This document shows, in pieces, positions 1 to 63,621 of a stretch of DNA of 64,000 nucleotides (its first letter is position 1; each line of letters opens with the position of its first letter). Below the pieces are notes generated by a model. The model was given only the letters and a program-made list of their open reading frames with translations, did no database searches and had not been told where the DNA came from. The position numbers were made by a program, and so were the translations under genes. The stretch lies in IMG/VR virus record IMGVR_UViG_3300046615_000261, positions 64,001 through 128,000 of that record. One strand, written 5' to 3'. This stretch comes from a virus (Duplodnaviria; Caudoviricetes).

Positions 1-80
1 GCATCATCGTCGTACGGAACATCGGTGATCTTGTGCACATCGTGACCAAACTTCGCTTCGAACAGTTCAATTAGCTTCAC
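1..80 (-). CDS. Partial protein with capsid-targeting-like N-terminus, runs off the window edge
   Basis: GTG at 80 overlaps the upstream stop (GTGA); reads MKLIELFEAKFGHDVHKITDVPYDDD. Confidence 0.6.
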   Translation of the reverse strand, partial: MKLIELFEAKFGHDVHKITDVPYDDD

Positions 81-604
81 AGATCTTTCCTAACCATGTA
101 CAGAAGTTCGTCCTTCTGATCGTGCTCTTGGCGGCTCTTCATCAATGAAGCGACCTCTGGTGATTTCTTCGCCAGATGCACGCCATCCTCGTACTCACTG
201 GTGCGAGAGAACTTCTTGATCAGCGATTTGTAGAATGATGTTCGGCTGCTTTCAGTCTTACGTGAGCTGAACGAGATAACAGCTGGACGTTCCTTGGCAG
301 CGAACTCCTCCATGACCTTGATGACTGTCGAGAAGATCTTCAGCGCGTCGCCACCGTTCGTGATTGCGTACGCTGTTTCACCCGTCTCTTTGTCGACCCG
401 AGAGAACATCACCTCAGCCACAGAGAACGAGTCGTCGCTCATGTAATCTTGTTCGTCTTCGTCCTCGAGCTTAACGTACGTCATCGCGAACTCTACGTGA
501 ATCTGGTCACCATCCTCGATCGTGAATCTGGTTTCAGCGCCTTGGCTTCCCCAATAATCAAGCTCGAACTCGTAGCATGAGTTCAGGAGTTCATTCAGCT
601 TCAT
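77..604 (-). CDS. Putative internal head protein, GNAT-like (DUF6934-like) paralog family
   Basis: Start re-assigned to MKLNELL at 604; family motif NGGDALKIFSTV...ISFSSRKTESSRTSFY. Confidence 0.7.
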   Translation of the reverse strand: MKLNELLNSCYEFELDYWGSQGAETRFTIEDGDQIHVEFAMTYVKLEDEDEQDYMSDDSFSVAEVMFSRVDKETGETAYAITNGGDALKIFSTVIKVMEEFAAKERPAVISFSSRKTESSRTSFYKSLIKKFSRTSEYEDGVHLAKKSPEVASLMKSRQEHDQKDELLYMVRKDL

Positions 605-1076
605 TTGAGTCCTTCTTCGTGTACGTGAAGTACGAGTACTCACCATCACTGCTCATGTTCACGGACAACGCGTAATCTTTGAACAGCCGTGTACCAAGCT
701 TCTTGTACAAGTCGGCACGATTATCTTTGCTTCCTTCTTTTTCTGCACCGAAGCGGATCATGTCTGGATTGAACTTCGCGAGAGTTTTCTTGATCATAGA
801 CGAGATGAACGAAAGAACCTGCATTTCACCACCGTTTCCGGTCTTGTCATACACACGACGCGGGTAAATCTCGCCATCAGCTCGCGTTGACATCCTCAGT
901 TCACTGAACTCAATGTACACGTACGGATGGCCACCGCTTTCTTCACCAGCGCTATGGACAGCTGCAGAGAACAGGATCTCTCGATTCTCGATCACGGCCT
1001 TCACCATGAATGTTTTATCGGTGTCGCGTTCAATCGTGTACTTGATCTCACGGTCCATCAATTCTTGAAGCTTCAT
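591..1076 (-). CDS. Putative internal head protein, same paralog family
   Basis: MKLQELMD start coupled (TGATG) to baseplate wedge stop; TGNGGEMQVLSF...RFGAEK..RADLYKK motif. Confidence 0.7.
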   Translation of the reverse strand: MKLQELMDREIKYTIERDTDKTFMVKAVIENREILFSAAVHSAGEESGGHPYVYIEFSELRMSTRADGEIYPRRVYDKTGNGGEMQVLSFISSMIKKTLAKFNPDMIRFGAEKEGSKDNRADLYKKLGTRLFKDYALSVNMSSDGEYSYFTYTKKDSNEAE

Positions 1077-4000
1077 CAGCGCACCTGACGGATGATCGTT
1101 GGGGTCAGAGCTTCGACGATTTCGATGTCAGTCAACTGAGCAGCTGATTGCAGGATTTCATCGAAGCCGCACTCGACCGTGAACATGTCACCGAACGAGT
1201 TCGTGCTGTACAACGGAACGAGAACAACCGAAGCGATCTCAGATGGCAGACGCTGGTGCATCAGAGCGATCAGCTCAGTCACATAGAACGTTTCACCGAA
1301 ATCCCAGTTCGAGATGTCGAAGTACGTGTTCATCGTGTTCAGCAGCTCTTCCTTGATGCGCTCGTTCGTGAGTGTCGCACCTGGAGCACGGACAACCTTG
1401 AACTTCGCGCGGAACTGAGGCTCAGCCAAAGAACCGAACAGCAGACGGAGCTTGCCAGGGTGGAGCACGATCGTGTCAGAGAGCATCTTGTTCTTCAACA
1501 GGTACCCATATGCCGAGCGCAGATCCAGTGGAGTTGGAGCAACTGGAGCTGAAGTCGTCAGACCACGGAGGAAGCTGATCACCGAGTCGTAGTAGCCCTG
1601 TGTCAGGACGTACGCATCATGAATGTTCGTGACCGAAGGATCGATGATGTTCGTGCTTGGTGCAAAGTGCTGCCACATGAAGTCCAGACCGGAGTCAGCT
1701 TGAGCTGCTTCGATCGAAGGCATGCGTTGACGACGGCCGAAGACCATGTCAACATCAACGAACGCCCCAGGCAGGTACGTTGCGTTCTTCGCGTCAGCGT
1801 ACTTCAGCGCATCATCGATTGGATCGAGGAGCGCTGTAGGAATTGCGAGCTCGAAGTACTCGTACGAGTCGTTCGAGAACGTTTCGTACTGGAGCAGACG
1901 GTCAGGAACCAAGTCACCAGACGAGTCTTCTTGAAGCAAATCAGTTGGAACAACTTGAAGCTTGTGGAAGTCAATAAGGCCTTCACCGCTCTTCACAGCG
2001 CCAACAACGTCGTACACTTGGCTCTTGCCGAGTGGAGCACCAGTGCTGTCCAGATTTGAGCGCAAGATCTTGATGTTATCAAATACGCGCTTCTTCGTGT
2101 CTTGGTCAAGGATCTGATCGACCTCATTGAACCAGAACTTCGTGGAAGGCGATTGGATCGTGAGCTTCAGATCGCGGTGATGGACTTCGTAGCCGATCAC
2201 GTTGTTCGTTGGTTGTTGACGAATCTTACGAACGAACACGAGCCAGCTGTGTTGCTTCATGGCAACGCTGTCGTCCATCGTGAACAGCAGTTCGTCACCG
2301 TTGATAACTTGACCGCCAGAGTAATGTGGAAGCTGCGAGTAGCCGAGGATTTCCCACCAACCGTTCAGATTGATCGCACCTGGAGTAGACGACACACCAT
2401 TGTTCCGGTAAGCGCCGCCATGCGAGGATGTCGAGCGTCCAACTGGCGCGCCAGAGACACCAGTGTCGAGAACGAATGCGTCACCTGGTTCGAACAGAAT
2501 CGAGCTCTGCGTAATCAGGAAGAACGGCACTGGAGTCTGATAACCAGTTGGAGTGATGTCGTACGTCGTACCGACCGAGCCCGTTGGGAACGTGCCGCGC
2601 AGATTCGAACGAACATTCAGCGTCTGACCGTCAGCAGCAACTTCAATCGTCCAGACTTCACCTTGCACAGCGCCCTGTGGGCGGTTCAAGATCGTGATTG
2701 TACCCGAACCGATACCCGTCACATAACGATTGTACCGAAGCGCGAAGTAATCCTGCTCAGCGATTGGCTGCAGACCGGAACCGATGTCGCCTGGTGGGAA
2801 CTTGTTCACGCCGTCGATCGTGCGTGGCACAGCCGCAGCGTAGATACGCGAGTCGTCCTTCGGGAACAGATCTGGATCAGGGATGCGAGCGTAAATCTGC
2901 GAGTTCTGACCTTCAACGTACTCGAGTGGTTCACCGTACCAGTGACGGTCAATCAGACCCTGCATCGCTGTCTTTTCTTTCAGCGAGCCGTCAGCAGTGG
3001 AACCATCAAGAAGCTTCACATAGCCGCCAGTAGGCGCCTTGTAAAGACCAGCACGATTGTCCTCAATGAACGAGCGACGTGGCGAGGACACAACACCTTG
3101 CGTTGCAGGATCCGTAGCCGAGATGTGCAGCATTGCGTTGATCACGCCATTCGACTCGAGCAGAGGCTCGATCACGGAGTCAATCAGCGCTTGGCCAGAC
3201 AGGGACGTCGTCAAAGAGTTCAGACCCAGTTCGTACCGCATCACGAGGTCATCACCGAAGATGTTCACGTTCTCGTACGAGCCGGAAGCGTCGTTCCAGT
3301 CGATGTACTTTGGCTGACCAGCGAACGTGCGATTAACCGCCTTCAGGCGAAGGATCGAAGGATCCTTGAGCATGAATGTGTTCGCATCTTGACCGTTCAC
3401 AATACGGTTCTGAGCGTAGTACGTGCTTGGAGCGGACTGACGAACGTGCTCGATCGATTCCGATGCAGCACCGTTCTGGAGAGTGGTTGTCAGGCTGAAC
3501 GTGACCGAGCAGGACTGGGTGTTCCCAGTGTTCGACACGTACGTGAACGTCATTGGCTCGTTCACGATCTTGTTCTTCTGGATCACGATCGCGCGGTTAG
3601 CGGACGAGCGCATCCAGAAGCGGAACAGACCTTGCGGAGCGTTCACGAAGTCGCCGTCGCCGAACACGATCGCAATTTGATCGTTCTCCATCGTGTCGAC
3701 TTCGTACTTCGAGCGTGTAGAACGATCATCGTTGAAGATCAGGTTCTGCTCGTTCACGGTCGAAACTTGCTTCCAGCGTTCCGAGATGTTCTGCTGTTCG
3801 TCGAGCTTCTGAACCCAGACGTCAGTGTGATTCACGTTGTTCGGCAGGAACTCAACGCGACGATTTGGGAGCTTGTCGGCCAGGGTGTAGTCAATGCGAG
3901 CAAGCATACCCTGCTTCACGTACATCAGGAAGCCGGTGTAGTCAGAGCCGTCGCCAATACCGTCGTTCGCGTACAGCAGCGACAGAGGAGCGGACATGTC

Positions 4001-4699: not shown

Positions 4700-4705
4700 T
4701 ATTTA
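4700..4705 (-). promoter_or_regulatory. Late promoter TAAATA, gp55-dependent; representative of 17 copies
   Basis: TAAATA at 4700(-), 13100(-), 18164, 20688, 24235, 27183, 27200(-), 31824, 33317, 33576, 35935, 41136, 48167, 55685, 57668, 58631, 60292, each just upstream of a virion or late gene; resembles T4 late TATAAATA. Confidence 0.85.
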
Positions 4706-4766: not shown

Positions 4767-4771
4767 TCACC

Positions 4772-5225: not shown

Positions 5226-5453
5226 ATGAGCCGCTTCTTCCTGTTCAAGACGAAGGACCTGGAGATCCCGCCGTTCTTCACGGTGCTCGATGGTACGCTC
5301 GATCTGGAACCGCCGATCGCCGCGAAGGGCGATATCGTTCACATCGAGTGTGACGAGAGCGCCCTTACGTTCTGGCTGCGCGGTATGCTCTGTAAAGGCA
5401 TCTGGATGGCCGAGAACACTGAAGATGGTTGGTACATCGAGTTGCCAAACTAG
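5226..5453 (+). CDS. Small hypothetical protein, tandem paralog B
   Basis: SD AAGGA then ATG 5226; MSRFFLFKTKDLEIPPFFTV. Confidence 0.7.
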   Translation: MSRFFLFKTKDLEIPPFFTVLDGTLDLEPPIAAKGDIVHIECDESALTFWLRGMLCKGIWMAENTEDGWYIELPN

Positions 5454-6154
5454 ACCAGTCCGAGCTCGCGCTTGAAGCGGAACTGCACGATCGCCCAGTA
5501 GTTCTGCAGGTCTTTGCTGACCTCGCCCTTGACCTTTTCCCATGCAGCTTCTGCATCGGCAAGGGTCTTCCCGGCTTTCTGAGCCGTGTTCGCGAGCATC
5601 TTCTTGTGCGGTGAAAGATCGCTCCGGAACTTGGCATCCTTCTGGACTGGGTAATCCTGCTCGCCGCTGATGTACGGATCCGAGCGCTTCATTGCGCCTT
5701 CGTCCACGGTCACGCGTCGATTCAGCTCGAACAGGATGTACTTCTCGGCACGACCCAGGCCTGTTTCGAACTCACGAACGAGGTATGCATCGGCGAATCG
5801 CTTGACCATTCGTCTGTACAACTTCACGCGCGACTCTTCGGACTTCTTAGCCGAGAATTCCATTCGCTTCGGATTGTGTTCCTTGATCAGTGAACGGAAG
5901 CAATTCAGAACGAACTGGAAAACCTCGACTTCATTGCCGCTTCCAGTAAGATCGGTCTTTACTTTCTGCTCACCATCGGCCCAGACATCATCAGTCAATT
6001 CAGAGAATAGAACTTCCCAAGTGATTCTGTCTTGGTGCGCGACAAATCGAATGACGCGATCGCCGATCTTCTTTTCAATCTCAAACATTCCATGATTGCG
6101 GTCACGAACGGTACCACCGTGATCAGCAGCTTTAAAAAGTTCATTCAGCTTCAT
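5450..6154 (-). CDS. Putative internal head protein, GNAT-like family plus extra C-terminal domain
   Basis: Start re-assigned to MKLNELF at 6154 (SD AAGGA, ATGA overlap); LTGSGNEVEVF...FSAKKSEESRVKLY. Confidence 0.75.
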   Translation of the reverse strand: MKLNELFKAADHGGTVRDRNHGMFEIEKKIGDRVIRFVAHQDRITWEVLFSELTDDVWADGEQKVKTDLTGSGNEVEVFQFVLNCFRSLIKEHNPKRMEFSAKKSEESRVKLYRRMVKRFADAYLVREFETGLGRAEKYILFELNRRVTVDEGAMKRSDPYISGEQDYPVQKDAKFRSDLSPHKKMLANTAQKAGKTLADAEAAWEKVKGEVSKDLQNYWAIVQFRFKRELGLV

Positions 6155-6632
6155 TTGTCTTTCCTTGTCAGGAGGAATACCGTGGATTCGTACCCAACGC
6201 GGCCTTGCCATGCCTTTTCGACTTCCTGAGTGTCGAAATCATTTGCGAATCGCTTGATCATCCGTTTGTAAAGCTGAACACGTGATTGCTCGGTTTTAAA
6301 CGCACTAAATTCCATGGCCTTTGGATTGAACTTTTGAATGAACTCTCGCATGCACGCCATCACGAACGACATCACTTCAATTTCATTTCCACTACCAGTC
6401 AAGCCGTGATTTGATTTCTCGCCAGACTCGGTTTGCTCAGAGTCTTCGCTGAACGAGATCACGTATCTCACACCCAAATCTTTTTCAACGGTGAACGTGA
6501 TTTCACGGCCGCCAATCTGCTTCGTGACTTCAAAGACAGGGTCATATCCGTTCTTACGATCTACGGCAACTTTACCGCCGTGATCTTCTTTATCAAACAG
6601 CTCATTCAGCTTCATTTGTCTTTCCTTGTCAG
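6141..6632. repeat. 31-nt perfect direct repeat at two gene junctions (6141..6171, 6602..6632)
   Basis: tcattcagcttcatttgtctttccttgtcag occurs twice; its first 17 nt also occur at 591..607. Confidence 0.9.
6151..6615 (-). CDS. Putative internal head protein, GNAT-like family
   Basis: MKLNELF; LTGSGNEIEVMSFV...FSAFKTEQSRVQLY; ends LTRKDK. Confidence 0.75.
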   Translation of the reverse strand: MKLNELFDKEDHGGKVAVDRKNGYDPVFEVTKQIGGREITFTVEKDLGVRYVISFSEDSEQTESGEKSNHGLTGSGNEIEVMSFVMACMREFIQKFNPKAMEFSAFKTEQSRVQLYKRMIKRFANDFDTQEVEKAWQGRVGYESTVFLLTRKDK

Positions 6633-7028
6633 CGCGAACAGGTCAAGGCCATGTTCACCATCATCTGGAGACAATTCGTAGTCGCCACCGAATCGCTTCA
6701 CCAAATGGTGGTACACCGTTGATCGCGACTTGTCGCTGAATTCCGACCCAAAGACAATTCGCTCTGGGTTTCGCCGCTTAATGAAGTCGCGCATGCACGC
6801 CACCACGAATGACATCACCTGGATTTCATTCCCGCTACCTGTCATATCGACAGATACCTTATCACCACGCCATTCAGCGAATGAAACTTCCCAATCGTCT
6901 CTGTCGCTACGGTCTGCAGAGAAGGAAATCAGTCGATCACCAATCATCTTCTTCACGTTGAAGTGGTGCTCTGAGTTCTCAACTTCGGCGCCGTGATCAG
7001 CAGATCCAAAAAGCTCATTCAGTTTCAT
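6612..7028 (-). CDS. Putative internal head protein, GNAT-like family
   Basis: MKLNELF; MTGSGNEIQVMSFV; ends LTRKDK. Confidence 0.75.
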   Translation of the reverse strand: MKLNELFGSADHGAEVENSEHHFNVKKMIGDRLISFSADRSDRDDWEVSFAEWRGDKVSVDMTGSGNEIQVMSFVVACMRDFIKRRNPERIVFGSEFSDKSRSTVYHHLVKRFGGDYELSPDDGEHGLDLFALTRKDK

Positions 7029-13076: not shown

Positions 13077-13219
13077 TCTGGAACCCTGTGAACATCTTCT
13101 ATTTAGACCTTGATGAAAAGCGCTCGACGGGTCAACCGCGAGCGTACAATAGTGGTGGAGCGATTCGGTTATCCCGGGTGACCCGCGCGCGGGTGCAGGA
13201 GGAACGTTACAATACACAC

Positions 13220-18166: not shown

Positions 18167-18191
18167 ATAGCCGTTATACAATGGACTGATC

Positions 18192-19019: not shown

Positions 19020-19021
19020 TC

Positions 19022-31826: not shown

Positions 31827-31855
31827 ATACAGGACTATTAGGCTAAGGAGCACTC

Positions 31856-48068: not shown

Positions 48069-48198
48069 CCGTTTCCGGAATTAGACTCTTCACCGACGCC
48101 GGTCAGGTGTCTCCGGTGTCGCCTCGTGTCGCCGATCGGTGCCGGGTCTTTGGTGCTGGCATGACGTAAATAGGTCTCTACTCCTATGAGCGTCATTC

Positions 48199-51936: not shown

Positions 51937-52814
51937 TGAAGCTCCTCGATCTTTTTGAATCAGCGAAATACACCCTCGAGCAGGAGTTTATCATCCGCTC
52001 GTGGGGTCAGGTCTTGTACCTTGACTACTTCGATTTGCCTGCTGGCCGCAGCACTATTGGCACCTATGATTTGGCTGTTCTCGTTCGTGAGTACAACGAG
52101 GCAATCAAGTCTGGCGATGAAGACAAGATCACCGAGCTGGATGAGTGGATCGCTGAAGGCGCGCCATTGAAGAACGGTAAGCACGTGCTCACAAAGGAAA
52201 CTGTTGACGTTCTGCTCACGCGAGCGCAACATAAAGCTGGCAAGGAGATCACGCTCTATCGGTTCGATGAACGAGACAATCCATTGAAGCCAGATGCGTG
52301 GATCAGCATGACCACGAAAGATAACGGATACGCAGGCGCACGTCGTGAATACCATCTGAAGGCAGATGACCTGATCATTGACGCACATGGTCTTGCTGAT
52401 GACCAGGAAGTGATCGTGAATACGAACGTGCTTCTTAAGTCTACAAACGAAGCGTACCAGCCAGAGTGGGAGAAGCCATGCTGGATCGTCGCAATCAAGA
52501 ACACCCTTGGCGTCTCTGAAGAGAAGATCAAGGAGCTTGCTCTGAAGCATGACTGGGACGGAAAGAGCGATGGTCTTGCTGTCAAGAACGTGATCATGAT
52601 CGTGTGGGATTTGATCGGCCATATGCCTGATCTGTCGCTCACGAAGGACTCGAGAGGCATGACACCAAAGGAGTTCTCTGGCACTCAAGGCAAGACTGGT
52701 CTCGTGTTCACGAAGGCGCACGTGATGCCGATGATCAATGGCAAGGTATCAAATTTCAACGGGCACGGCGAAGAAGAAATCGCGGCGGTCGCCACGTACA
52801 AAGGTAAGAAATGA
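51936..52814 (+). CDS. Putative internal head polyprotein: ART-like plus papain-like domains
   Basis: MKLLDLFESA; LYR...WISMT...QEVIV; then PCWIVAI...AHVMPMING..SN. Confidence 0.5.
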   Translation: MKLLDLFESAKYTLEQEFIIRSWGQVLYLDYFDLPAGRSTIGTYDLAVLVREYNEAIKSGDEDKITELDEWIAEGAPLKNGKHVLTKETVDVLLTRAQHKAGKEITLYRFDERDNPLKPDAWISMTTKDNGYAGARREYHLKADDLIIDAHGLADDQEVIVNTNVLLKSTNEAYQPEWEKPCWIVAIKNTLGVSEEKIKELALKHDWDGKSDGLAVKNVIMIVWDLIGHMPDLSLTKDSRGMTPKEFSGTQGKTGLVFTKAHVMPMINGKVSNFNGHGEEEIAAVATYKGKK

Positions 52815-53281
52815 TTCTGCAGGAGATCCTTGACAGCGTATATCCGTTCAAGCTGAAGAAGCATGCTGACGGTATGTCGGCGTCGTTCGTGAATGCGAAC
52901 AAGAAGCGCGTCTCGGTCTCCTTGGTTGGGTACCACATTCCAGAAACTGGTTGGTCGTACGAGATCCAGTTCGCGATCAAGAACAGCACTGAGTTAACAG
53001 GTGATGGTGATCAGTTCAAAATCTTTGCGACTGTTTCTGCAATCGTGCAGGAGTTCTTGAAGGTCAAGAGCGATTGGCGAGCATCAGGAGTTCCTGTGCT
53101 ACTGTTCTGCACGGCAGATTCAGGTGGCCGTCATGGACTGTACAGGAAGCTTGTTCAGCGAGTAATCGCTGGTACGAAATTCAAAATCAAAGAACCAACC
53201 GCTCTGCCGAAGAACGTGCAAGAGTGGTGGTCGCAGCTGGAGTTCTCCGGCGACTCATACATTATGGCAACAACACTATGA
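52811..53281 (+). CDS. Putative internal head protein, GNAT-like family
   Basis: MILQEILDS; LTGDGDQFKIFATV...FCTADSGGRHGLYRKLV. Confidence 0.65.
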   Translation: MILQEILDSVYPFKLKKHADGMSASFVNANKKRVSVSLVGYHIPETGWSYEIQFAIKNSTELTGDGDQFKIFATVSAIVQEFLKVKSDWRASGVPVLLFCTADSGGRHGLYRKLVQRVIAGTKFKIKEPTALPKNVQEWWSQLEFSGDSYIMATTL

Positions 53282-54063
53282 TCAATAACTACTGGTTCGA
53301 TAATCAACTGCGGAGCTACATCCTGCAGTTCGTCTCGATCTTCCAAGGTCTGCAAGTACAGACTGGTTCTGGCGAGTGCGATGAGGTTCAGCGAATCACC
53401 GTACCATGCGTGATCGGTAACAAGGACCGTGTCGTCGCAGCTCTGCACACTGGGAATACAGACAATCGCGTGTTCAGCCTGCCAACAATGTCCGTGCACA
53501 TGCAAGGTCTGCAGCTCGCTCCTGAACGTCGGAAGGTTCAAGCATTCGTGGATCAGCGAGTGACCATGAAGGCTGGTGGCGTGTTCCCGCAAGACTTGAC
53601 GACCGTTAAGCGCGCGATGCCAATCCCGTACAACATGACGATCGAACTGAGCATCTACGCGTCGAACACTCTGCAACGCGATCAGATCCTAGAGCAAATC
53701 CTCGTGCTGTTCAATCCGGATCTGCAGATCCAGAAGTCTGATGGTGCATTCGACTGGACACGTCTGACAAAGGTTGAACTGACTGACATCGCGAACGAAG
53801 AGAACTATCCATCGGCGACTGATCGCCGCATGATCGTCTGGACTCTGTCGTTCGAGCTGCCGATCTTCCTGAGCGTTCCGATGGGCGTGAAGGATGACTT
53901 GGTCCGGAAGGTCATTATCCAGATTGGTTCGCTAGATACTCTAGTAGTGAATGAAGTTGACGAGAATGGAGAACTGACTCCGTTCGGCACTCCAATTGCT
54001 CGTATCGAGTACGACACCCGCGACCCTGTAGGTCCAATTCCTGACGGCCCAGTCCAAGTATGA
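53278..54063 (+). CDS. gp15: Tail terminator/sheath stabiliser gp15-like
   Basis: YWFDNQLRSYILQFVSIF, PIPYNMTIELSIYA...QILEQILVLFNP. Confidence 0.85.
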   Translation: MINNYWFDNQLRSYILQFVSIFQGLQVQTGSGECDEVQRITVPCVIGNKDRVVAALHTGNTDNRVFSLPTMSVHMQGLQLAPERRKVQAFVDQRVTMKAGGVFPQDLTTVKRAMPIPYNMTIELSIYASNTLQRDQILEQILVLFNPDLQIQKSDGAFDWTRLTKVELTDIANEENYPSATDRRMIVWTLSFELPIFLSVPMGVKDDLVRKVIIQIGSLDTLVVNEVDENGELTPFGTPIARIEYDTRDPVGPIPDGPVQV

Positions 54064-55646
54064 TTTCATTCAAGCAATTCCTCGCCGAAAAGGCAATGAA
54101 CAAAGGCGCGTACGCTAAGGCTGCGGCCCGCGTAGGCGGAGACGCACGTATCGGTTTTGAGATCGAAGTCGTTGTTCCAGCAAAAACCGCAATGCACGTC
54201 GGTCCTTCTGAAACGAAGGACGATCCGTCGAACATCGAAGACATCCGTAAGTACGACTCTCTGAGCGAGTTCGAGGTCACGTTCTATGTGACGCAGAATG
54301 ATCGTGCAAAGATCAATCGTGACTTCGGAGACTGGGTGGCAGCCCAGGAAGATGACTGGGTTGAGGGGAACTGGCACTCATTCGTTGATGACGACGAGCA
54401 TGAAGACAATCCAGATCGCGCTGAGAAGAATGCGCGCCGTGAAGCCGCACGTGAGTACGACAAGTCTGACGACACCTTTGATGTCTGGGTTGATCGTGAA
54501 TTCAGAACCTCAAAGTCATTCGTTGATTTCTACGATCTTGAGCCAAACTACGGCTGGCACAACGACTACACGGTGTACACGTCTGATCCACAAGGCGAGT
54601 CCGAGATGTACATGAACGGCTGGGGTGAGACAGCAAAGTACATGGCACAGCAGCTCGAGCTGATCGTAAAGAACAAGGTCGTCGTGAACGGTTCCGGCTA
54701 TTCAAGCTGGAACCTTACCCATGACACCTCGATCAAAGACGATCAAGGCACTGATTACGAATCAGGCATGAACGGGTACGGTATTGAAATCGTCTCTCCT
54801 CCGCTGAAGTTCGAAACCGCGTTCACTCTCCTTGAAGCTGTTCTCCGTTGGGTAGATCGGAACGGCATGAACACGAATGAGACGACTGGCATTCACATGA
54901 ACATGTCTCTGAACGACATGGCTGATTTCGATCCATTGAAGCTCGTGCTGTTCATGGGTGACAAGCACATCCTTGAGAAGTTCAATCGTCTTTCGAACAC
55001 GTTCACTCGCTCGCAGATTCAGCTTGCTGCTGACGGCGTCGAGATGACTGGCACTCTGCCAAAGGGCGTGGCTGAGATTGAGAAGGCTGCTCGTGAATCG
55101 CTGAAGACTTCAGGTAAGTACTTCTCGGTTAATCTGAACCACATGCCGAAGTACCTCGAGTTCCGCGCTGCTGGCGGTCCAGGATACCACAAGCGAATCG
55201 CTGATCTGCACGAATTGATGGGCCGTTGGCTGACCGCCATGGAGATCGCAACCGATCCGGCACGTGAACGGAAAGAGTACCTGAAAAAGATCGCGAAGCT
55301 CGCAGGGCTGACATCGATCGGTAAGGCGCAACAAGGCGATTCAGTCGAGAAGTCATTCAAGGACGCAGTTCTTGGTCCACGCGGTCGTCGCTGGCTCTGG
55401 GACGGCGTCCAAAAGGCTCTTGAGTCTGGTGATGCAGCAAAGATCAAGACGGCTCTGAAGTCGCTCGTGATGGAGATCATTTCCGATTACGAAGACGGAT
55501 CGCCAAAGAAGCCGACCTTTAAACAGGTAAAAGAAGCCCGTGCAATGTTCAAGCAGGCCGGAGTGAAACTGAATGATTTGCAGGGAGACGACAAAGAACT
55601 GCGCGGCGCGTACGCAAAATTCAATCACATTTGGAGTGTCGACTGA
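54060..55646 (+). CDS. Putative amidoligase (COOH-NH2 ligase) with capsid-targeting leader
   Basis: MISFKQFLAE; GFEIE, HDTSIK, GIEIVSPP, TTGIHMNMS, KYFSVNL, LEFR. Confidence 0.75.
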   Translation: MISFKQFLAEKAMNKGAYAKAAARVGGDARIGFEIEVVVPAKTAMHVGPSETKDDPSNIEDIRKYDSLSEFEVTFYVTQNDRAKINRDFGDWVAAQEDDWVEGNWHSFVDDDEHEDNPDRAEKNARREAAREYDKSDDTFDVWVDREFRTSKSFVDFYDLEPNYGWHNDYTVYTSDPQGESEMYMNGWGETAKYMAQQLELIVKNKVVVNGSGYSSWNLTHDTSIKDDQGTDYESGMNGYGIEIVSPPLKFETAFTLLEAVLRWVDRNGMNTNETTGIHMNMSLNDMADFDPLKLVLFMGDKHILEKFNRLSNTFTRSQIQLAADGVEMTGTLPKGVAEIEKAARESLKTSGKYFSVNLNHMPKYLEFRAAGGPGYHKRIADLHELMGRWLTAMEIATDPARERKEYLKKIAKLAGLTSIGKAQQGDSVEKSFKDAVLGPRGRRWLWDGVQKALESGDAAKIKTALKSLVMEIISDYEDGSPKKPTFKQVKEARAMFKQAGVKLNDLQGDDKELRGAYAKFNHIWSVD

Positions 55647-58551: not shown

Positions 58552-58667
58552 GAACCGATTTTAACCCGAACCCCTGTATCGGACTTGTTATCAGTTGTAA
58601 AACCGGTACAGACTGCTTGGCACTGTTCGCTAAATACATGACATCATAATTCACTAAAAAGTGTCAC

Positions 58668-60221
58668 ATGCTTTCCTTCATTGATTTCCTGGCAGAAGCC
58701 CAGTTCAGCGACGACGATTTTGCTCGCGTTCTGAGCGTCTTCGAACGCCGTCTCCCAAAGCTCCTTGGCGCTAAGCTGTACCGTTACGGTGGTAAAAACC
58801 ACGTTGAAAAGGTCGGCTCCGCTTCCCGGATCGTGTACATTTTCAATGACCGCGCATTCGGTGTTCGCTTCAAGGGCGGTCACGTTATTGGCATCGACGT
58901 CTGGTCCTCGTTCAAGGGTGGTCCAAGCCACTTCATCGACGTGCACACGCTCGCCGCTTCTTCCCTGATTGCTTCGATCAGCAAGCTCGCTGCTCTGATC
59001 AAGAATCCAAAGGAAGGTACGCACGAAGTGAACGCGGTGAATGAATCCGTTCAGCTCGATGAGATGGCACGTCGCGTTGACGACAGCGCTTTCTACAAGT
59101 TCATGGTCGCTGCGTACGGTGAAGACGGTGCACAGAAGGTTACTTGGGCTCAGATCAAGACTGTCGCTGACGACAATGACGTTCTGATTCCACGCTACAT
59201 CCGTGACCAGAAGATTGGCCGCGGTCTCTGGACCTCGAAGCCAGGTGCTGGTGGTTCTTCCGAAGGTGGTGACGCCGCTGCTCCAGAAGCTGCTCCAAAG
59301 GCCGCTAAGAAGGAACCAATCCTGTACATCAAGGTCACGGCTCAGGACCCTGACACGAAGCGCTTCATCCCTGCTGGTGAAGTGAAGCAAGCCCAAGCTC
59401 TGTACAAGCAGATCGCTTCTGGCATGGCTGATCACAAGCCTTCCGAAAAGGAAATGCGCGATCCAGACACTCTGTACGGTCACTTGTCGCAACTCGTCGA
59501 CATGACTTGTAAGGGTACGCTCCGCTCGCTGCTGATCTACGGTGGTCCAGGTACCGGTAAGACGTACACGATTATGCAGACGATCAAGCAAGCTGGCATG
59601 ACGTCTGGTAAAGAGTACATCAAGATGTCGGGTAAGGCATCTCCACTGTCGATCTACCAAACACTGTTCATGTTCCGCGAAGGCGGTCTCGTTGTGTTCG
59701 ACGACTTGGACTCGATGTGGGGTAATGAAGACGCAACGAACATCTTGAAGGGTGCTCTCGATACGTCACCAGTCCGCGAAATCACATGGGGTTCTTCGAG
59801 CACTGTGAACGTTTCGAAGATGGACAAGGAAGAGCGCGAGCAATTCAATCGTCAAGTGGACGACAAGCTCGAAACGAACCCAGAGAAGGTCAAGCTGCCT
59901 AATCAGTTCGAATTCAAGGGCCGCGTTGTGTTCATCTCGAACCTGAAGAAGGACGAGTTCGACACCGCGATCATGTCGCGTTCCGCAAAGATCTGTATGG
60001 ACCTGACTCCAGAGGAAATTCTGAAGCGCATGCGTTCCGTTCTGCCAGGTCTCGGTGGTGACGACGTTCCACTGAAGGATAAGGAAGCTCTGCTTGATCA
60101 CCTGATCAAGATGCACGGTAATGGCGAACTCGATGCTGTCACAATGCGTGAGTTCGTTAAGGGTCTGAACATCTTCCGCTCGGGTGCTCCGAACTGGAAG
60201 GACCTGATCCAGTATTCCTAA
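58668..60221 (+). CDS. AAA+ ATPase with capsid-targeting leader
   Basis: MLSFIDFLAEA; GGPGTGKT Walker A, VVFDDLD Walker B, ILKGALD, FISN, AIMSRS. Confidence 0.85.
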   Translation: MLSFIDFLAEAQFSDDDFARVLSVFERRLPKLLGAKLYRYGGKNHVEKVGSASRIVYIFNDRAFGVRFKGGHVIGIDVWSSFKGGPSHFIDVHTLAASSLIASISKLAALIKNPKEGTHEVNAVNESVQLDEMARRVDDSAFYKFMVAAYGEDGAQKVTWAQIKTVADDNDVLIPRYIRDQKIGRGLWTSKPGAGGSSEGGDAAAPEAAPKAAKKEPILYIKVTAQDPDTKRFIPAGEVKQAQALYKQIASGMADHKPSEKEMRDPDTLYGHLSQLVDMTCKGTLRSLLIYGGPGTGKTYTIMQTIKQAGMTSGKEYIKMSGKASPLSIYQTLFMFREGGLVVFDDLDSMWGNEDATNILKGALDTSPVREITWGSSSTVNVSKMDKEEREQFNRQVDDKLETNPEKVKLPNQFEFKGRVVFISNLKKDEFDTAIMSRSAKICMDLTPEEILKRMRSVLPGLGGDDVPLKDKEALLDHLIKMHGNGELDAVTMREFVKGLNIFRSGAPNWKDLIQYS

Positions 60222-60241
60222 TCCTTGATTTAAGGATTATG

Positions 60242-60272: not shown

Positions 60273-60321
60273 GCATCTGCTCGCTCCGCTCTAAATAAGC
60301 GTACATCCGATCGGAATCACC

Positions 60322-61350
60322 ATGAAACTCATCCAAGAAATTCAAACCATTGTTGAAGCCAAGGGCGTCAAAGACTCGCTCTCTGATACTCAACTGAAGT
60401 ATGTTCTCCGTGGCGCAGCCACTGGTAGCCGTATCGAAGCTGATGGAAAGATCGTTTGGCCAGGCACTGCGTCGACAATCTTCAATTCACGTGAAGCTAA
60501 AGAAAAGTATGCTCGTAAGGGTGATGCATTTGCCGAGAAGATGAAGACCGGCAAGTTCAACAAGGTCGTGATCAAGGATTACCAAGCACGTGGCGCCGGC
60601 GGTCAATGGCTGACTGCTGAAACGTACGAACTGACGATCAACGAATCGTTCACGCTTGGCTCGAAGCAACACGCTGAACTCGCAGCAGCTGCAAAGGGTC
60701 TGGACAAGATGACCGTTCGTCGCTTCAAGACGATCGTCAAGTACTCGACCATGAGCCAGCACGATTGCACTGAAATCACCGACATGTTGAACACTGTCGA
60801 CGCTGACAAGGTTCTGACGCGTCATGACATCGAGCAAATTGCAGCTTCAACGAACACTGATCTTGGCGAACTGCTTGATCTTTCGAATCTGAATGAGGCG
60901 GAAGAGAAGAAGACAGCAAACCCAGAATTTGCCAAGGGTCTCGAAGCAGGTATGAAGGCGCTCAAGAAGCTTCGTCCCCAAGGCAAGATCATCCCAGGTT
61001 TCGTTCATAACATCGGCAGTGCGAGCCACGAACGTCATGATGCATCGTTCGAGTACGATTTCGAATATGACGGCAAAACATACGAAGCTGCGATCCGTGT
61101 AGATTACTCGAAGTCTGGTGGCGTCAGCCGCCCACCACAGTACCACTACTCGTACTACAGCTTCAAGGACAAGAACGAAAAGAACGCTCGTATGTTCAAC
61201 CCACAAGCTGACTCCGGCCCGTTCATCACGGATCTGAGCGAGCTCGGCAAGGAACTGAACTCCTGGGAAAAGCACATTGCTGATGGCTTGATCGCTCAGA
61301 AGAAGCGTTGGGAAGCTGATCTCGAAAAGATGCGTCCAAAGAAGAAGTAA
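60322..61350 (+). CDS. Putative internal head polyprotein
   Basis: MKLIQEIQTIVEA; internal TINES and NLNEA sites; late promoter 60292. Confidence 0.6.
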   Translation: MKLIQEIQTIVEAKGVKDSLSDTQLKYVLRGAATGSRIEADGKIVWPGTASTIFNSREAKEKYARKGDAFAEKMKTGKFNKVVIKDYQARGAGGQWLTAETYELTINESFTLGSKQHAELAAAAKGLDKMTVRRFKTIVKYSTMSQHDCTEITDMLNTVDADKVLTRHDIEQIAASTNTDLGELLDLSNLNEAEEKKTANPEFAKGLEAGMKALKKLRPQGKIIPGFVHNIGSASHERHDASFEYDFEYDGKTYEAAIRVDYSKSGGVSRPPQYHYSYYSFKDKNEKNARMFNPQADSGPFITDLSELGKELNSWEKHIADGLIAQKKRWEADLEKMRPKKK

Positions 61351-62640
61351 ATGGCCGATATTTCGCAACTCCTGAGATCCTCAGGCATTGACGCTCAGCG
61401 CACTGCGACTGATCTGTTCGGTGCCGCTGTTGAGGACTTCGCGGCAAAGCCACTGAACGGCTTGCTGAACTCCGTCACTGGACGGAACGGCACGGCGGCT
61501 CAGGGGCGAAATGATCCAGGTACATGGTACGCAACATCGTACGCTGCCTCTTTGGCGAACTCGCAGTACCGTCCGAAGTTGAAGTTCATGTTCCGCGTGG
61601 AGTTCTTGTTCGAGCCAAAGGTGCTCGAGACATTCGGCCGCGCCGAATGGCAAAAGAACTTCACCTTCCTCGTGAAGACTGTAGATCGTCCAAAGGTCGA
61701 CTTCGAGTACGAGGACGTGAATCAGTACAACTTTAGAACGAAGGTCTTGAAGCAGATCAAGCACCGTGAACTGACGCTCTCATTCACTGACGACGTCGGC
61801 AATCACGTGTACGAGTTCTTCCGTTTCATGATGATGGTTCACTCACCAATTACCCGTCGCTCTGCTTACGCATCAAGTGACATCTCGGCTGCGTACGCAA
61901 CGTACACCGCTGGTTCGGGCATGGAGTTCACGAAGGGTCTCGGTCCTATCAATGACTTCGCGCACCGTGGTGCTGTTGACACCGATCTTGGCAATGCGAT
62001 CCGCGCAATCAAGATCACTCAGATCTTCATCAACCCTTCCGATACGCCGCCAAATGCAGCGAAGGAAGTGTCGTTCTTCTTCATCAATCCACGCGTAACC
62101 TCGTTCGACTTGGATGATGTGTCGCATGAAGCATCTGATCCGAATCTGTTCACGATGCAGTTCGATTATGACTTCATGGTCATGAGCAAGCAAGAACTCT
62201 TGAAGCCACTGAGCGCTGACAAGTCTCTCCCACCAGTTGGCACTGCTCCAGGTGAAGCTGCTCCTACACCAGGTTCTGGCACTAGCACTGGGTACGGTTC
62301 TGGCGCAATGGATCCGTACATTGGAATGCTCGCTGGTATTGGTGGCCGTGCTGTACAGAAGATCACCTCAGATACCGTTGGCAAAGCTCTGCGAACCATT
62401 CCTGGTCTCGGTTCTGTCGCTGACAACATCGGTGGTATCACGCAAGGTATTGCGCGTGACCAGCTTGCAGGGATCGGTCAAACTGTGAACCAAGCGTTCG
62501 CTCGACCAGGTCGCGACATCGTGACTGATTTGTCGACTGCTGGCCGTGATGCAGCGTCGTACATCACTTCTATTGGTTCAGGTGGATTCGGCTCAGGCCA
62601 ACCATCCGTGAACGTAACTGATCTTGGCGGATATCTCTAA
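61351..62640 (+). CDS. Tail-tube-like baseplate protein (gp19/gp54 paralog)
   Basis: PKLKFMFRVEF, VKTVDRPKVDFEYEDVNQYN, LTLSFTDD, FTMQFDYD parallel the tube protein. Confidence 0.65.
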   Translation: MADISQLLRSSGIDAQRTATDLFGAAVEDFAAKPLNGLLNSVTGRNGTAAQGRNDPGTWYATSYAASLANSQYRPKLKFMFRVEFLFEPKVLETFGRAEWQKNFTFLVKTVDRPKVDFEYEDVNQYNFRTKVLKQIKHRELTLSFTDDVGNHVYEFFRFMMMVHSPITRRSAYASSDISAAYATYTAGSGMEFTKGLGPINDFAHRGAVDTDLGNAIRAIKITQIFINPSDTPPNAAKEVSFFFINPRVTSFDLDDVSHEASDPNLFTMQFDYDFMVMSKQELLKPLSADKSLPPVGTAPGEAAPTPGSGTSTGYGSGAMDPYIGMLAGIGGRAVQKITSDTVGKALRTIPGLGSVADNIGGITQGIARDQLAGIGQTVNQAFARPGRDIVTDLSTAGRDAASYITSIGSGGFGSGQPSVNVTDLGGYL

Positions 62641-63125
62641 TGCTTCTCACTGAACTCCTGGCCTATCATGGCACTGGTAAGAAACCAACAACGAAGCTGA
62701 AGCCGCCTATCTTCGTGACAACTCAACGTGAAGGCGCTGAGTGGTATGCTGCTGAGCGCGGGAACGGCGAGAATGGTGTTATCCTCGTTGGCGATCTTCA
62801 AGTGAAGAAGCCGTTCGATCTGCGTAGGTTCGATGGGTACGAGAAATACCTAGAGTTGGCTAAGTCTGCGGGGATCGAGTTCGAGGGCATGGATGTCCAT
62901 AACGAGCAGTTCTTCTGCAAGGAAATTCAAGATCACTCGCCATACGATGGCACGAACTCCTCTGACCTCGTGTACATTCCGAAGTTTCAAGCGGCACTGA
63001 AGGCCGCTGGATATGATTCATTGCACATGAGTGACGTGCTCACGAATGATGAGATCGACACGTACGTGATCTTTGATCCATCACTGTTCAAGATTAAGCG
63101 CGCTGAGAAGCATCTGTACTACTAA
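62640..63125 (+). CDS. ADP-ribosyltransferase-like protein (ART-PolyVal-like), paralog 1
   Basis: MLLTELL; YHGT...PIFVT...AEWYA...L.VKKPFD...GYDS...YVIFDP. Confidence 0.6.
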   Translation: MLLTELLAYHGTGKKPTTKLKPPIFVTTQREGAEWYAAERGNGENGVILVGDLQVKKPFDLRRFDGYEKYLELAKSAGIEFEGMDVHNEQFFCKEIQDHSPYDGTNSSDLVYIPKFQAALKAAGYDSLHMSDVLTNDEIDTYVIFDPSLFKIKRAEKHLYY

Positions 63126-63132
63126 GAACGCA

Positions 63133-63621
63133 ATGCTTCTCTCTGAAATCACCGTCTATCACGGCTCTGAAGCTGCTCCTAAGGGGAAGTTCAAGATGCC
63201 TCTGTTCTTGACACCAAACAAGAATGGTGCTTCGTGGTATGCTCGCGAGCATGCTGGCGCCGGCAGAACTGGTGTCCTCGTGACTGGTGAGCTGAACGTG
63301 AAGAAGCCGCTTGAGGCTTATGGATACGGTCTGTGGAAGAAGATGCTTGACGTCGCTCAGTACGCAGGCATTCGTTTCAAGAACGATCCGTACTTCCAGT
63401 GCGATGAGATCAGCGACGCTGGACACTCTGGTTCGAACATCGGTGATCTCGTCTATCTTCCGAAGTTCCAGCAAGAGCTGAAGAGACAGGGATACGACTC
63501 AGTGCACATGAGTGACGAGCTAGTCGGTAGCTCGATCGAAGTGTACGTGATCTTCAAACCATCACAATTCAAAATCACCAGCATCGGCGATCCAATTTCG
63601 ACCGATGACGCTTGGAAATAA
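63133..63621 (+). CDS. ADP-ribosyltransferase-like protein, paralog 2
   Basis: MLLSEI; YHGS...PLFLT...ASWYA...L.VKKPLE...GYDS...YVIFKPSQFK. Confidence 0.6.
   Translation: MLLSEITVYHGSEAAPKGKFKMPLFLTPNKNGASWYAREHAGAGRTGVLVTGELNVKKPLEAYGYGLWKKMLDVAQYAGIRFKNDPYFQCDEISDAGHSGSNIGDLVYLPKFQQELKRQGYDSVHMSDELVGSSIEVYVIFKPSQFKITSIGDPISTDDAWK

Follow-up and report, generated by a model that had tools for sequence, protein, structure and literature searches.

The window, a 64,000-nucleotide stretch, comes from a jumbo phage of the T4 superfamily that is represented in IMG/VR by a contig of 234.5 kb. The major capsid protein is ~51% identical to its counterpart in Ralstonia phage RsoM2USA, and the phage is placed in the T4-core XacN1/RsoM2USA-like group. 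According to the initial annotation, 17 ORFs of the window encode proteins that begin with a common short tag. All 17 start codons and N-termini were located as claimed (arrows mark predicted cleavage points):

1..80 (-), MKLIELFE↓AK, 26 aa inside the window, 160 aa in the full contig
77..604 (-), MKLNE↓LLNS, 175 aa, GNAT-fold paralog; Pfam DUF6934, 1e-7
591..1076 (-), MKLQE↓LMD, 161 aa, GNAT-fold paralog, the member that was modelled
5450..6154 (-), MKLNE↓LFKA, 234 aa, GNAT-fold paralog with C-terminal extension
6151..6615 (-), MKLNE↓LFDK, 154 aa, GNAT-fold paralog
6612..7028 (-), MKLNE↓LFGS, 138 aa, GNAT-fold paralog
18192..19019 (+), MKLSE↓IKA, 275 aa, without known family
19022..19798 (+), MKLADLFE↓A, 258 aa, J-domain at residues 19-68
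19798..20673 (+), MKLSEIKLFE↓A, 291 aa, without known family
32468..33301 (+), MKLLQE↓MLGLLE↓A, 277 aa, directly 3' of the protease gene
51936..52814 (+), MKLLDLFE↓S, 292 aa, without known family
52811..53281 (+), MILQE↓ILD, 156 aa, GNAT-fold paralog
54060..55646 (+), MISFKQFLAE↓K, 528 aa, Amidoligase_2
58668..60221 (+), MLSFIDFLAE↓A, 517 aa, P-loop/AAA in the C-terminal half
60322..61350 (+), MKLIQE↓IQTIVE↓A, 342 aa, without known family
62640..63125 (+), MLLTE↓LLAYHGT, 161 aa, ART-fold, tag overlapping strand beta-1
63133..63621 (+), MLLSE↓ITVYHGS, 162 aa, ART-fold (predicted)

The first of these starts with GTG and extends past the window edge. Independent Logan/JGI gene calls for 58668-63621 gave identical lengths (517, 342, 429, 161 and 162 aa). 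The tag observation as such is real. The ORFs do not represent 17 independent cargoes, as had been assumed, but ~10 families: 7-8 of them form a single GNAT-fold paralog family, with members also outside the window; the ART-fold paralog pair accounts for another two. Further tagged genes lie outside the window, bringing the candidates to 31 contig-wide, in 23 BLAST-independent families.

Nor is there one common tag. Two interchangeable classes are present: class A, MK(L/V/I)x(E/D)L(F/L)E (MKLxELFE-like), and class B, M(x)1-3(T/S)FKx(F/Y)LxE (MxxFKxFLxE-like). The T4 N-termini in NC_000866 are MKTYQEFIAE↓A (IPII/IPIII), MKTFKEF...ITE↓A (IPI), MELITE↓LFDE (Alt) and MAKINELLRE↓S (gp24), and the capsid-targeting sequence of IPI, IPII, IPIII and Alt has been reviewed (PMC9026906, PMC3012670). 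Class B agrees with MKTYQEFIAE at positions 4, 7, 8 and 10 (here F4, F/Y7, L/I8 and E10). In T4, mutagenesis has assigned residues 4 and 7 to targeting and residues 8 and 10 to processing (PMC9026906).

The strict motif was found in 22 of the 288 called genes of the contig and at none of 1,384 internal Met positions, and [KIL]L.[EDQ][LIMF] occurs about 87 times as often at residue 2 as it does in protein interiors. A motif-free comparison of residues 2-9 among BLAST-unrelated genes gave 12 similar pairs in the contig, against 0-1 at interior offsets, and 27 against 1-3 and 57 against 0-1 in two complete genomes of relatives. PSSM matches numbered 12, 13 and 37 at a threshold of 0.5 expected false positives. 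Such a bias might reflect not a peptide signal but codon or amino-acid preferences after the ATG that optimise translation initiation in late genes with strong expression: Lys (AAA/AAG) is a frequent second codon, a strong Shine-Dalgarno sequence is missing from many tagged genes, which are translationally coupled, and [LIVMF]xE occurs near the start in 30% of late genes versus 18%. We find this explanation barely credible. The motif is missing from the proteins that make up the bulk of the virion (capsid, tail sheath, tail tube and portal); conservation is as strong at positions 5-8, with E, L, F and E, as at positions 2-3, and Lys at position 2 is missing in class B. Moreover, synonymous codons vary freely inside the tags although the amino acids are conserved, which indicates that conservation acts on the peptide.

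The tagged ORFs lie in TAAATA late operons, as had been proposed. The sequence TATAAATA is absent, the late sites carrying TAAATA in the form [C/G]TAAATA. Most of the 58 TAAATA sites are followed within ~50 nt by an ATG on the same strand, many of them at 27-45 nt, and the genes preceded by such sites include those of the baseplate wedge, protease, tail sheath and tail tube. A separate promoter, GTTACA-N17-TACAAT, serves the early genes. Neither Pfam nor PHROGs confirmed a late sigma factor of the gp55 type. The sites serving the tagged ORFs are:

4700..4705 (-), late promoter of a baseplate-wedge gene, then tagged ORFs 1076, 604 and 80
13100..13105 (-), late promoter of a baseplate operon ending in tagged ORFs 7028, 6615 and 6154
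18164..18169 (+), late promoter 22 nt 5' of ORF 18192; the unit includes ORFs 19022 and 19798
31824..31829 (+), late promoter preceding the protease gene and tagged ORF 32468
48167..48172 (+), late promoter of a neck/adaptor unit including tagged ORFs 51936, 52811 and 54060
58631..58636 (+), late promoter preceding tagged ORF 58668
60292..60297 (+), late promoter preceding tagged ORF 60322, with ORFs 62640 and 63133 downstream

Across the genome the tag is enriched in late operons (late versus early, p = 3.5e-4; p = 0.005 by family, with paralogs collapsed). When the structural block is excluded, 5 of 13 late-promoter-proximal genes are tagged, compared to 2 of 153 others (p = 2.5e-5). The assertion that no early gene carries the tag was almost correct: 21 of the 22 strict tags are in late units, and the one early exception, at genome position 139307, lies outside the window and does not keep its tag in orthologues.

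The GNAT-fold paralogs follow gp6-like, gp25-like and gp5-like baseplate genes in common late units, and their tag might thus direct these paralogs to the baseplate or tail, or mark them for another late process. We consider this improbable, since the same tag occurs beside the protease gene and on genes scattered outside the tail clusters, and family member 52811 is in the neck/adaptor unit. We know of no N-terminal addressing system for T4-type tails. The common start of these paralogs could be partly due to descent, and their destination could be the tail.

One tagged ORF, 32468, is embedded in a head-assembly region:

30108..31826 (+), portal protein, T4 gp20 family
31856..32464 (+), prohead protease, Peptidase_S77, 32% identical to T4 gp21
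33672..34556 (+), scaffold-like protein, 294 aa, in the T4 gp22 position 5' of the capsid gene
34582..35835 (+), major capsid protein, Pfam Gp23, 2e-83

The protease gene adjoins the portal gene, and its product shares the conserved GELNHP and GVSSRG motifs with T4 gp21 and itself begins MQLLKEYL...NLTE. The scaffold-like protein is 21% acidic and has 23 [LIVMF]xE sites; no sequence similarity to T4 gp22 was found. The capsid propeptide has an L-x-E↓TAG site at residue 39, conserved across three genomes. The product of ORF 32468 is a candidate prohead-core or internal protein.

Of the enzymatic activities initially assigned to the tagged proteins, the J-domain, amidoligase and P-loop/AAA were recovered with Pfam and the GNAT-like and H-Y-E ART-like ones by predicted fold, while the peptidase left only faint structural hints. 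In ORF 51936, hints of ART and papain-like domains are only faint. Compared with PDB folds, ORF 63133 best matches an anti-CRISPR protein (6kyf), PARPs and diphtheria toxin. Many of the tagged proteins are small ORFans in which no catalytic domain can be recognised.

These folds bear on whether the common start is merely an inherited or structural element, such as a first helix or strand or a leftover of duplication, with no addressing role. Two paralog families do account for ten tagged genes. In the ART-like model, residues 3-8 form strand beta-1, of which the tag of the pair is part, and the homologues of the pair all start exactly at the tag, MLL(S/T/N)E; its conservation there could be explained by structural constraint. 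As a general account this is nevertheless very improbable, because tags are present on 23 BLAST-independent families and interior segments show no comparable similarity. Pfam domains begin well past the tag (DnaJ at residue 19), and in the AF2 model of the GNAT-fold ORF 591..1076 the fold begins at about residue 8-11, leaving the tag outside it (pLDDT 60).

The same explanation is also opposed by orthologues in which the tag class is swapped and the body kept. The amidoligase starts with MISFKQFLAE in the present phage, MITFKQFLSE in the close relative G001, MKLDVLFE in a second close relative, G002, and MKLIQKLSE in RsoM2USA; RsoM2USA ORF89 is of class B and its G002 homologues of class A. 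In a 774-aa protein family, conservation begins immediately past xxE↓G, with three different leaders in front. Seven IMG/VR orthologues of ORF 58668 retain both tag and late promoter, and the G001 orthologue of ORF 18192 keeps MLLKEIKA with a BLAST alignment limited to the C-terminal ~147 residues. As judged from these comparisons, the tags behave as modules separable from the protein bodies. Many tagged genes lack an orthologue in G001 or G002 (ORF 19798 has one in neither), and the cargo varies widely among close relatives.

Published virion proteomics of relatives includes tagged proteins. Gel-band MS of RsoM2USA lists ORF89 (MKTFKQFLSES) and ORF132 (MKTFKQFLNT, with a AATAAATA site upstream); the identifications come from excised bands, and the published masses agree with the CDSs for these two and disagree for ORF257 and ORF438. 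Atu_ph07 virions contain the amidoligase homologue gp196, its gp number assigned via protein mass, for which 14 unique peptides gave 30% coverage. The DnaJ of that phage is missing from the virion table, and the XacN1 virion enzymes (chitinase, lipase) do not have the tag.

The tags might target the prohead, yet mark assembly parts (core, scaffold or inner body) that are degraded, expelled or kept as structural filling, and not host effectors. The N-termini of the T4 core proteins gp21, gp22, gp67 and gp68 are similar, ORF 32468 is placed between the protease and scaffold genes, many tagged proteins are the small ORFans mentioned above, and the GNAT fold also matches inactive antizyme. We judge this unlikely, though worth serious consideration: the J-domain, amidoligase, P-loop ATPase and H-Y-E ART fold have no obvious assembly role, and RsoM2USA ORF89 and ORF132 and Atu_ph07 gp196 are still present in mature virions. 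The variable cargo among relatives also resembles an arms-race periphery, not an assembly core. Some tagged proteins may still be prohead-core parts.

The initial interpretation is thus partly supported. Its central element, a T4-type capsid-targeting propeptide common to unrelated late proteins, is well supported by the match to T4 at the mutagenesis-defined positions, the encoded gp21-type protease, the tags kept or swapped among orthologues, and the tagged proteins or homologues in related virions. We consider it likely that the short N-termini are such propeptides, acting as follows. Late in infection, [C/G]TAAATA promoters would drive the synthesis of ~30 proteins of unrelated folds (the GNAT-like family, H-Y-E ART-like proteins, a J-domain protein, an amidoligase, a P-loop ATPase and many ORFans), each beginning with an interchangeable class A or class B label. 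The label would bind the growing scaffold core, so that the protein is enclosed as the gp23-type shell forms. The gp21-type serine protease would then cleave after the Glu of (L/I/F)-x-E, at residue 5-12, freeing the mature protein in the head. At least part of the cargo would exit with the DNA and act on the host before phage gene expression, as do T4 IPI-III and Alt. For the present phage we infer core binding, cleavage, head retention, injection and host-directed activity; injection and action before transcription are suggested purely by analogy with T4.

The system amounts to a much enlarged version of the internal-protein system known from T4, whose capsid-targeting sequence reportedly goes back to Mullaney and Black in 1996. 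Shared features are an N-terminal propeptide of 5-19 residues ending in (L/I)-x-E, the class-B aromatic residues at positions 4 and 7, the gp21 (S77) protease, gp20 portal and gp23 capsid module, late-promoter expression, and diverse, fast-evolving cargo including an ADP-ribosyltransferase. T4 has four such proteins, whereas the present partial genome has ~30 tagged genes, and a relative with a complete genome has at least 37 tags of class A. The present phage, known from sequence alone, also differs in its two interchangeable tag classes, its shortened [C/G]TAAATA late promoter, and a cargo with a GNAT-fold expansion, J-domain protein, amidoligase and P-loop ATPase. Its ART belongs to the H-Y-E (PARP/diphtheria toxin) fold group, whereas T4 Alt is an R-S-E type ART. 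No description of such an expanded tag system for this clade was found in the literature.

The jumbo phages phiKZ, 201phi2-1 and SPN3US likewise load many proteins into the head, with inner-body or ejection proteins processed after Glu by a T4-related prohead protease (gp175/gp245) and propeptides proposed for targeting (PMC5694885, PMC7411985, PMC10052503). Their propeptides are mostly 80-130 residues long with no common short tag, in contrast to the 5-12-residue tags described here, and virion RNA polymerases and a phage nucleus are features of their clade, while the present phage is in the T4-core group. Phages and conjugative elements also encode polyvalent proteins (Iyer et al. 2017, PMC5512222; jumbo-phage survey, PMC7824862), which contain conflict domains of the same kinds (ART-PolyVal, GNAT) and are likewise proposed to enter the host with DNA. 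These proteins fuse 2-15 domains in one giant polypeptide, whereas here each domain has a separate gene with its own tag, so that cargo could be gained and lost gene by gene. Since ~30 otherwise unrelated late proteins bear the tags, the packaged, possibly injected, protein set of this phage would be readable from its sequence.

The contig from which the window derives (bases 64,001-128,000) is an IMG/VR viral contig, 234,547 bp long and ~66% complete (CheckV), and the G+C content of the window is 51-58%. The stretch corresponds to the structural block of a jumbo phage belonging to the T4 superfamily.

T4-type genes recognised in the window
baseplate wedge and hub genes
gp46-like and gp47-like recombination nuclease subunits
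portal (Portal_T4, 1e-84)
prohead protease (Pfam PF03420 Peptidase_S77, 1.2e-26)
capsid, neck/adaptor, tail sheath stabiliser and tail sheath genes
tail tube gene (N-terminal resemblance only)

The major capsid protein is a member of Pfam family Gp23 (2e-83). It shares 51-53% identity with its counterparts in Ralstonia phage RsoM2USA, Xanthomonas phage Xoo-sp13 and Stenotrophomonas phages CM1 and RAS14, 46% with that of XacN1, and 40% with those of the Rak2-like phages 121Q and PBECO4. Megablast comparison of window segments with GenBank phages gave no useful near-identity match. Flanked by the gp47-like and gp46-like genes is an ORF for a 179-aa HslV-family peptidase (15884-16423, +; PHROG 1040, 2e-22; start MTC(I/V)VG).

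The initial annotation had ascribed a common N-terminal tag to 17 ORFs of the window, named here by their start positions. All 17 starts are present and read as first stated; the ORF at 80 (-) has a GTG start and extends past the window edge, reaching 160 aa in the contig. Public gene calls for other assemblies of the same phage gave identical lengths for five consecutive genes. Using a self-trained codon model, 288 genes were called on the contig. In this gene set a strict tag pattern matched 22 N-termini and none of 1,384 internal Met residues, and the tag pattern was 87-fold more frequent at residue 2 than in the interior. A motif-free test compared residues 2-9 of all BLAST-unrelated gene pairs with BLOSUM62, offsets 20, 40 and 60 serving as controls. 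It yielded 12 similar pairs in the window phage versus 0-1 at the control offsets; for two related complete genomes, analyzed whole (G001, 336 kb; G002, 342 kb with direct terminal repeats), the values were 27 versus 1-3 and 57 versus 0-1. The K, L and E codons vary freely within the tags, so that selection acts on the tag peptide. An [LIVMF]-x-E motif ending at residue 5-12 was found in 17/17 tagged ORFs; its background frequency is 30% among late genes and 18-19% among early genes and interior controls. The 17/17 value is partly circular, since the tag definition already contains the Glu. The tags are real and highly non-random.

The tags fall into two classes: class A, resembling MK(L/V/I)x(E/D)L(F/L)E, and class B, resembling M(x)1-3(T/S)FKx(F/Y)LxE. 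The proposal of a single T4-type label thus holds as regards the reality of the tags and their likeness to T4, but not as regards one label. The largest cluster in the window phage and G001 is MK(L/V/I)x(E/D)LFE(A/S), and that in G002 is MKLxxLLE (29 genes), so that the consensus is LLE in G002 versus LFE in the window phage. A PSSM set at 0.5 expected false positives recovered 12, 13 and 37 class-A tags in the three genomes. Two other ORFs in the window have similar starts. The first (25818-26120, -), of 100 aa and outside the original 17, begins with the tag-like MKLVDVKARNE (Asp at position 5) and lies in a late unit, 3' of the baseplate-hub gene; it has no family match. The second (46825-47199, +) follows an early-type promoter and begins with MNLNEATELD, a resemblance that is probably due to chance because the G001 orthologue (MNIEQVTQIF) does not keep it.

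For comparison, the N-termini of T4 proteins were taken from NC_000866.

N-termini of T4 proteins (↓, cut after Glu; in other phages, the predicted cut)
IPII and IPIII: MKTYQEFIAE↓A
IPI: MKTFKEFTST...ITE↓A
Alt: MELITE↓LFDE
gp24: MAKINELLRE↓S
gp22: MLKEQLIAEA
gp67: MEGLIEA
gp21: MNEPQLLIE

As reviewed by Kuhn and Thomas, the first 10 residues of IPIII are sufficient for packaging, and in T4 targeting depends on residues 4 and 7 and processing on residues 8 and 10 (PMC9026906). The capsid-targeting pattern was scored as hydrophobic or aromatic residues at 4 and 7, an aliphatic residue at 8 and Glu at 10, within a propeptide of 10-20 residues. ORFs 54060 (MISFKQFLAE) and 58668 (MLSFIDFLAE) both carry F4, F7, L8 and E10. 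In the case of 58668, the promoter and the leader M..(T/S)F(K)D(Y)L(V/I)E↓A are kept in seven IMG/VR orthologues of 54-66% identity. Class A resembles the N-termini of T4 Alt, gp24 and gp67, but has no mutagenesis precedent.

The T4-type head module is also present, comprising (i) a gp20 portal, (ii) a gp23 capsid protein with a conserved site, and (iii) a scaffold recognised by position and composition only. The protease is 32% identical to T4 gp21 (BLASTP, E = 2e-21), with conservation of GELNHP and GVSSRG, which we take to carry the catalytic His and Ser of the S77 protease. The site L-(L/T/K)-E↓TAG is common to the capsid proteins of the window phage, G001 and G002 at residues 39-44, just before the start of the Pfam Gp23 model (residue 51 in the window phage). 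The candidate scaffold, a 294-aa protein encoded 5' of the capsid gene, shows no sequence similarity to T4 gp22; its composition (21% acidic, 23 [LIVMF]xE sites) is as expected for a putative scaffold that would be cut into fragments.

The canonical T4 late box, TATAAATA, was rejected as the late promoter (0 sites), the actual motif being the shorter [C/G]TAAATA. The total of 58 TAAATA sites is not above the composition expectation; most lie within ~50 nt 5' of a same-strand ATG, many of them at 27-45 nt, and they precede the baseplate wedge, protease, tail sheath and tail tube genes, among others. Genes without TAAATA often have GTTACA-N17-TACAAT or CGTTACAAT. The early/middle consensus, distinct from the late motif, reads (C)GTTACA(G/A)ATT-N~17-(G)TACAAT(TCACC), with a shorter form CGTTACAATTG; contig-wide examples lie upstream of window 4772 and 14840 and at genome positions 60095, 136570 and 166769. 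No gp55 homologue was found by Pfam or PHROGs.

Each gene was assigned to the nearest same-strand promoter upstream. The claim that tags are confined to late units applied to 21 of the 22 strict tags, the remaining one being early (Fisher p = 3.5e-4). With paralogs collapsed, 14/153 late families were tagged versus 1/105 early families (p = 0.005). Outside the structural block, tags were found in 5/13 genes directly behind a late promoter versus 2/153 others (p = 2.5e-5), and two further tagged ORFs absent from the gene calls (genome 184548 and 198541) are likewise located behind TAAATA. The promoter directly 5' of each tagged gene, tested alone, gave p = 0.19 because most tagged genes lie within operons; this test was superseded by the transcription-unit and family-level tests. 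A promoter-anchored scan of first genes was uninformative. The [C/G]TAAATA sites are correctly positioned and linked to the tags. The one early case, genome ORF 139307 (MEKFEQFLAE), was ruled out as a tagged gene, as it belongs to an early unit and its orthologues do not keep this start.

When families were defined by BLAST with the first 14 residues masked, the 31 tagged candidates of the contig resolved into 23 families, one of which has eight members, seven in the window (the small paralogs); the two ART-like genes group together. Orthologues of the same cargo can differ in tag class, as is best seen in the amidoligase.

N-termini of amidoligase orthologues
window phage: MISFKQFLAE, class B
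G001: MITFKQFLSE, class B
G002: MKLDVLFE, class A, at the true upstream start
RsoM2USA: MKLIQKLSE, behind GGATAAATAG

Similarly, RsoM2USA ORF89 has a class-B tag and its G002 homologues have class-A tags. The family of a 774-aa protein has three different leaders, MRIISE↓, MTILRRLNE↓ and M..LTFKQYAQPILTE↓, and its conservation starts exactly past the Glu, with G(AG)I(T/S/D)H(I/L/V)(E/D)D. M(K/L)L(S/K)EIKA is retained at the start of both ORF 18192 and its G001 orthologue, and the BLAST alignment of the two is limited to the C-terminal ~147 residues. For many tagged genes, neither G001 nor G002 has an orthologue, a pattern already known from the T4 internal proteins. The contig's own 774-aa late protein is encoded 36 kb upstream of the window (genome 27714-30038; L057:115-2439) and starts with MRIISE↓GAGITHIEDL. 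It is a homologue of RsoM2USA ORF438 (34% identity, 1e-76) and contains QEKLDGAQ, a sequence resembling the KxDG motif (motif I) of covalent nucleotidyltransferases (ligase/capping enzymes); it had no Pfam match and no PDB sequence match. The complete 342-kb G002 genome (IMGVR_UViG_3300036781_000418) contains at least 37 genes with MKLxxL(L/F/H)E starts, including arrays of adjacent small genes (100-350 aa) that all begin in this way (e.g. 11444-12666, 75982-78537, 209199-214764 and 335435-337865).

The cargo that follows the tags in the window is diverse.

Tagged ORFs of the window and their assignment
19022: J-domain, residues 19-68 (2e-13)
54060: Amidoligase_2 (5e-10)
58668: AAA/P-loop (PHROG 1250, 1e-32)
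small paralogs: GNAT-like fold (predicted structure)
62640 and 63133 (ART pair): ART fold, H-Y-E type (predicted structure, sub-cutoff Pfam)
18192, 19798, 32468, 51936 and 60322: no recognisable family

Pfam matches on 19022, 54060 and 58668 bear out the J-domain, amidoligase and AAA assignments proposed earlier, and the GNAT-like assignment agrees with the fold predicted for the small paralogs. These paralogs share a mean identity of 33%, yet M1, L3 and E5 never vary among them, and TGSGxE and R..LY are conserved. Their AF2 model (pLDDT 82; 60 in the tag) places the beginning of the fold at about residue 8-11. Its top PDB matches include many GNATs (Naa10, Naa60, AAC(6') and tabtoxin resistance protein; probability ~1.0, TM 0.35-0.46), and an inactive antizyme is also among the fold matches.

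For the ART pair, PF18760 (ART-PolyVal) scored 25.0 and 21.1 bits, under the 31.2 cutoff, and precomputed matches to this family exist for two homologues. The AF2 model (pLDDT 82) matched anti-CRISPR protein 6kyf, PARP1/2, tankyrase, diphtheria toxin and MbcT (E = 3e-3 to 8e-2); 6kyf is presumably AcrIF11, an ADP-ribosyltransferase. As possible counterparts of the catalytic His, Tyr and Glu of the H-Y-E clade, the 5 homologues have an invariant Y9-H10-G11 and a conserved E-I-E-x-Y-V motif. The 'tag' of the pair may be structural, since residues 3-8 form strand β1 in the model.

Neither Pfam nor PHROGs had a match for ORFs 18192, 19798, 32468, 51936 and 60322, and an Atlas search of 18192, 51936 and 60322 provided no usable lead; papain-like and DRAT-like structure was hinted at only faintly in 51936. 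Outside the window, ten genes that are tagged or neighbouring had no Pfam match except a weak one to DUF6934. The P-loop half of 58668 (58668-60221, +; residues 250-517) has homologues in >1,300 phage records, annotated as hypothetical and mostly from T4-like phages of enterobacteria, Vibrio and Acinetobacter; the matches span the C-terminal half only, leaving the tag and the first 250 residues without a counterpart in these records. An endonuclease VII/HNH-type gene (20698-21099, +; PHROG 423, 6e-38) lies immediately after the three tagged ORFs of 18192-20673.

Published virion proteomes of related phages were compared with these predictions. In RsoM2USA, ORFs 38, 86, 89, 132, 257 and 438 were identified by MS of virion bands, beside canonical structural proteins (PMC8504454). 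The published ORF numbers correspond to the GenBank locus tags, as the coordinates of ORF253 agree, and for ORFs 38, 86, 89 and 132 the published and CDS masses agree within 0.2 kDa. ORF89 starts with MKTFKQFLSES and ORF132 with MKTFKQFLNTLMEA, the latter behind AATAAATA. The neighbours of ORF89 (ORFs 87, 88 and 90) are tagged too, as are ORFs 254-258 and eleven ~200-aa genes (ORFs 274-284). The leader of ORF257 ends in ITE at residue 15 and that of ORF438 in LTE after an internal Met; the likelier start of ORF438 is Met8 (MLTFKQY...), because the annotated start is only 6 nt after the late promoter. These two ORFs were dropped as virion evidence, since their published masses do not fit the CDSs of MG752970 (ORF257, 166235-166771: 17.57 versus 19.65 kDa; ORF438, 309479-311161: 51.69 versus 62.43 kDa) and no simple truncation accounts for the gap. 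In Atu_ph07, the amidoligase homologue AUZ94978 is gp196, as mapped by its mass (57.93 kDa) and neighbours gp197-199, and the published virion table lists it with 14 unique peptides and 30% coverage; DnaJ (gp293) is missing from that table. XacN1 gives no support, because neither of its virion enzymes, the chitinase (ORF272) and the lipase (ORF279), is tagged.

Taken together, the best explanation of the tags is probably that they are capsid-targeting propeptides of the T4 type, which the gp21-type protease would cut, and the system of the window phage is an expanded, two-class variant of the known T4-type system. The propeptides would be cleaved and the tagged proteins retained in the head, for which the virion presence of RsoM2USA ORF89 and ORF132 and of Atu_ph07 gp196 is indirect support. 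By analogy with T4, the cargo may be ejected into the host with the DNA. Membership is least secure for the ART pair and for the GNAT-fold paralogs that lie in baseplate operons. Open-access papers describe capsid-targeting sequences in T4 and, in the form of longer propeptides, in phiKZ-like phages, and ART and GNAT conflict domains have been noted in a comparative jumbo-phage survey (PMC7824862). No description of a short shared tag in XacN1/RsoM2USA-like phages was found in the open-access literature searched.

A broader reading, which we put forward tentatively and hold to be somewhat less probable than its opposite, is that in jumbo phages of the T4 superfamily's XacN1/RsoM2USA-like branch a two-variant N-terminal 'zip code', coevolving with the lineage, loads 30-40 proteins (~10% of genes) into the head. 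A late promoter, a tag and a cargo would then make up, for each cargo gene, a unit that can be exchanged independently, and the phage would inject much of this cargo as a kit, made in advance, for counter-defence and takeover. Candidates for this kit include an ART of the H-Y-E fold group, the expanded GNAT-fold proteins, the amidoligase, the J-domain protein and the nucleotidyltransferase-like enzyme.

The non-DNA contents of jumbo-phage heads are usually learned proteome by proteome. If the zip-code reading is true, the injected proteome of uncultivated jumbo phages would be predictable from sequence alone: the address tag, the late promoter and the gp21-type protease would together allow cargo prediction for a whole clade known mostly from metagenomes. 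Such prediction would yield a list of candidate first-minute effectors against bacterial defence, among them many ORFans and proteins of the ART, GNAT, amidoligase and J-domain types. The findings also suggest natural tag variants that might serve for protein packaging beyond T4.
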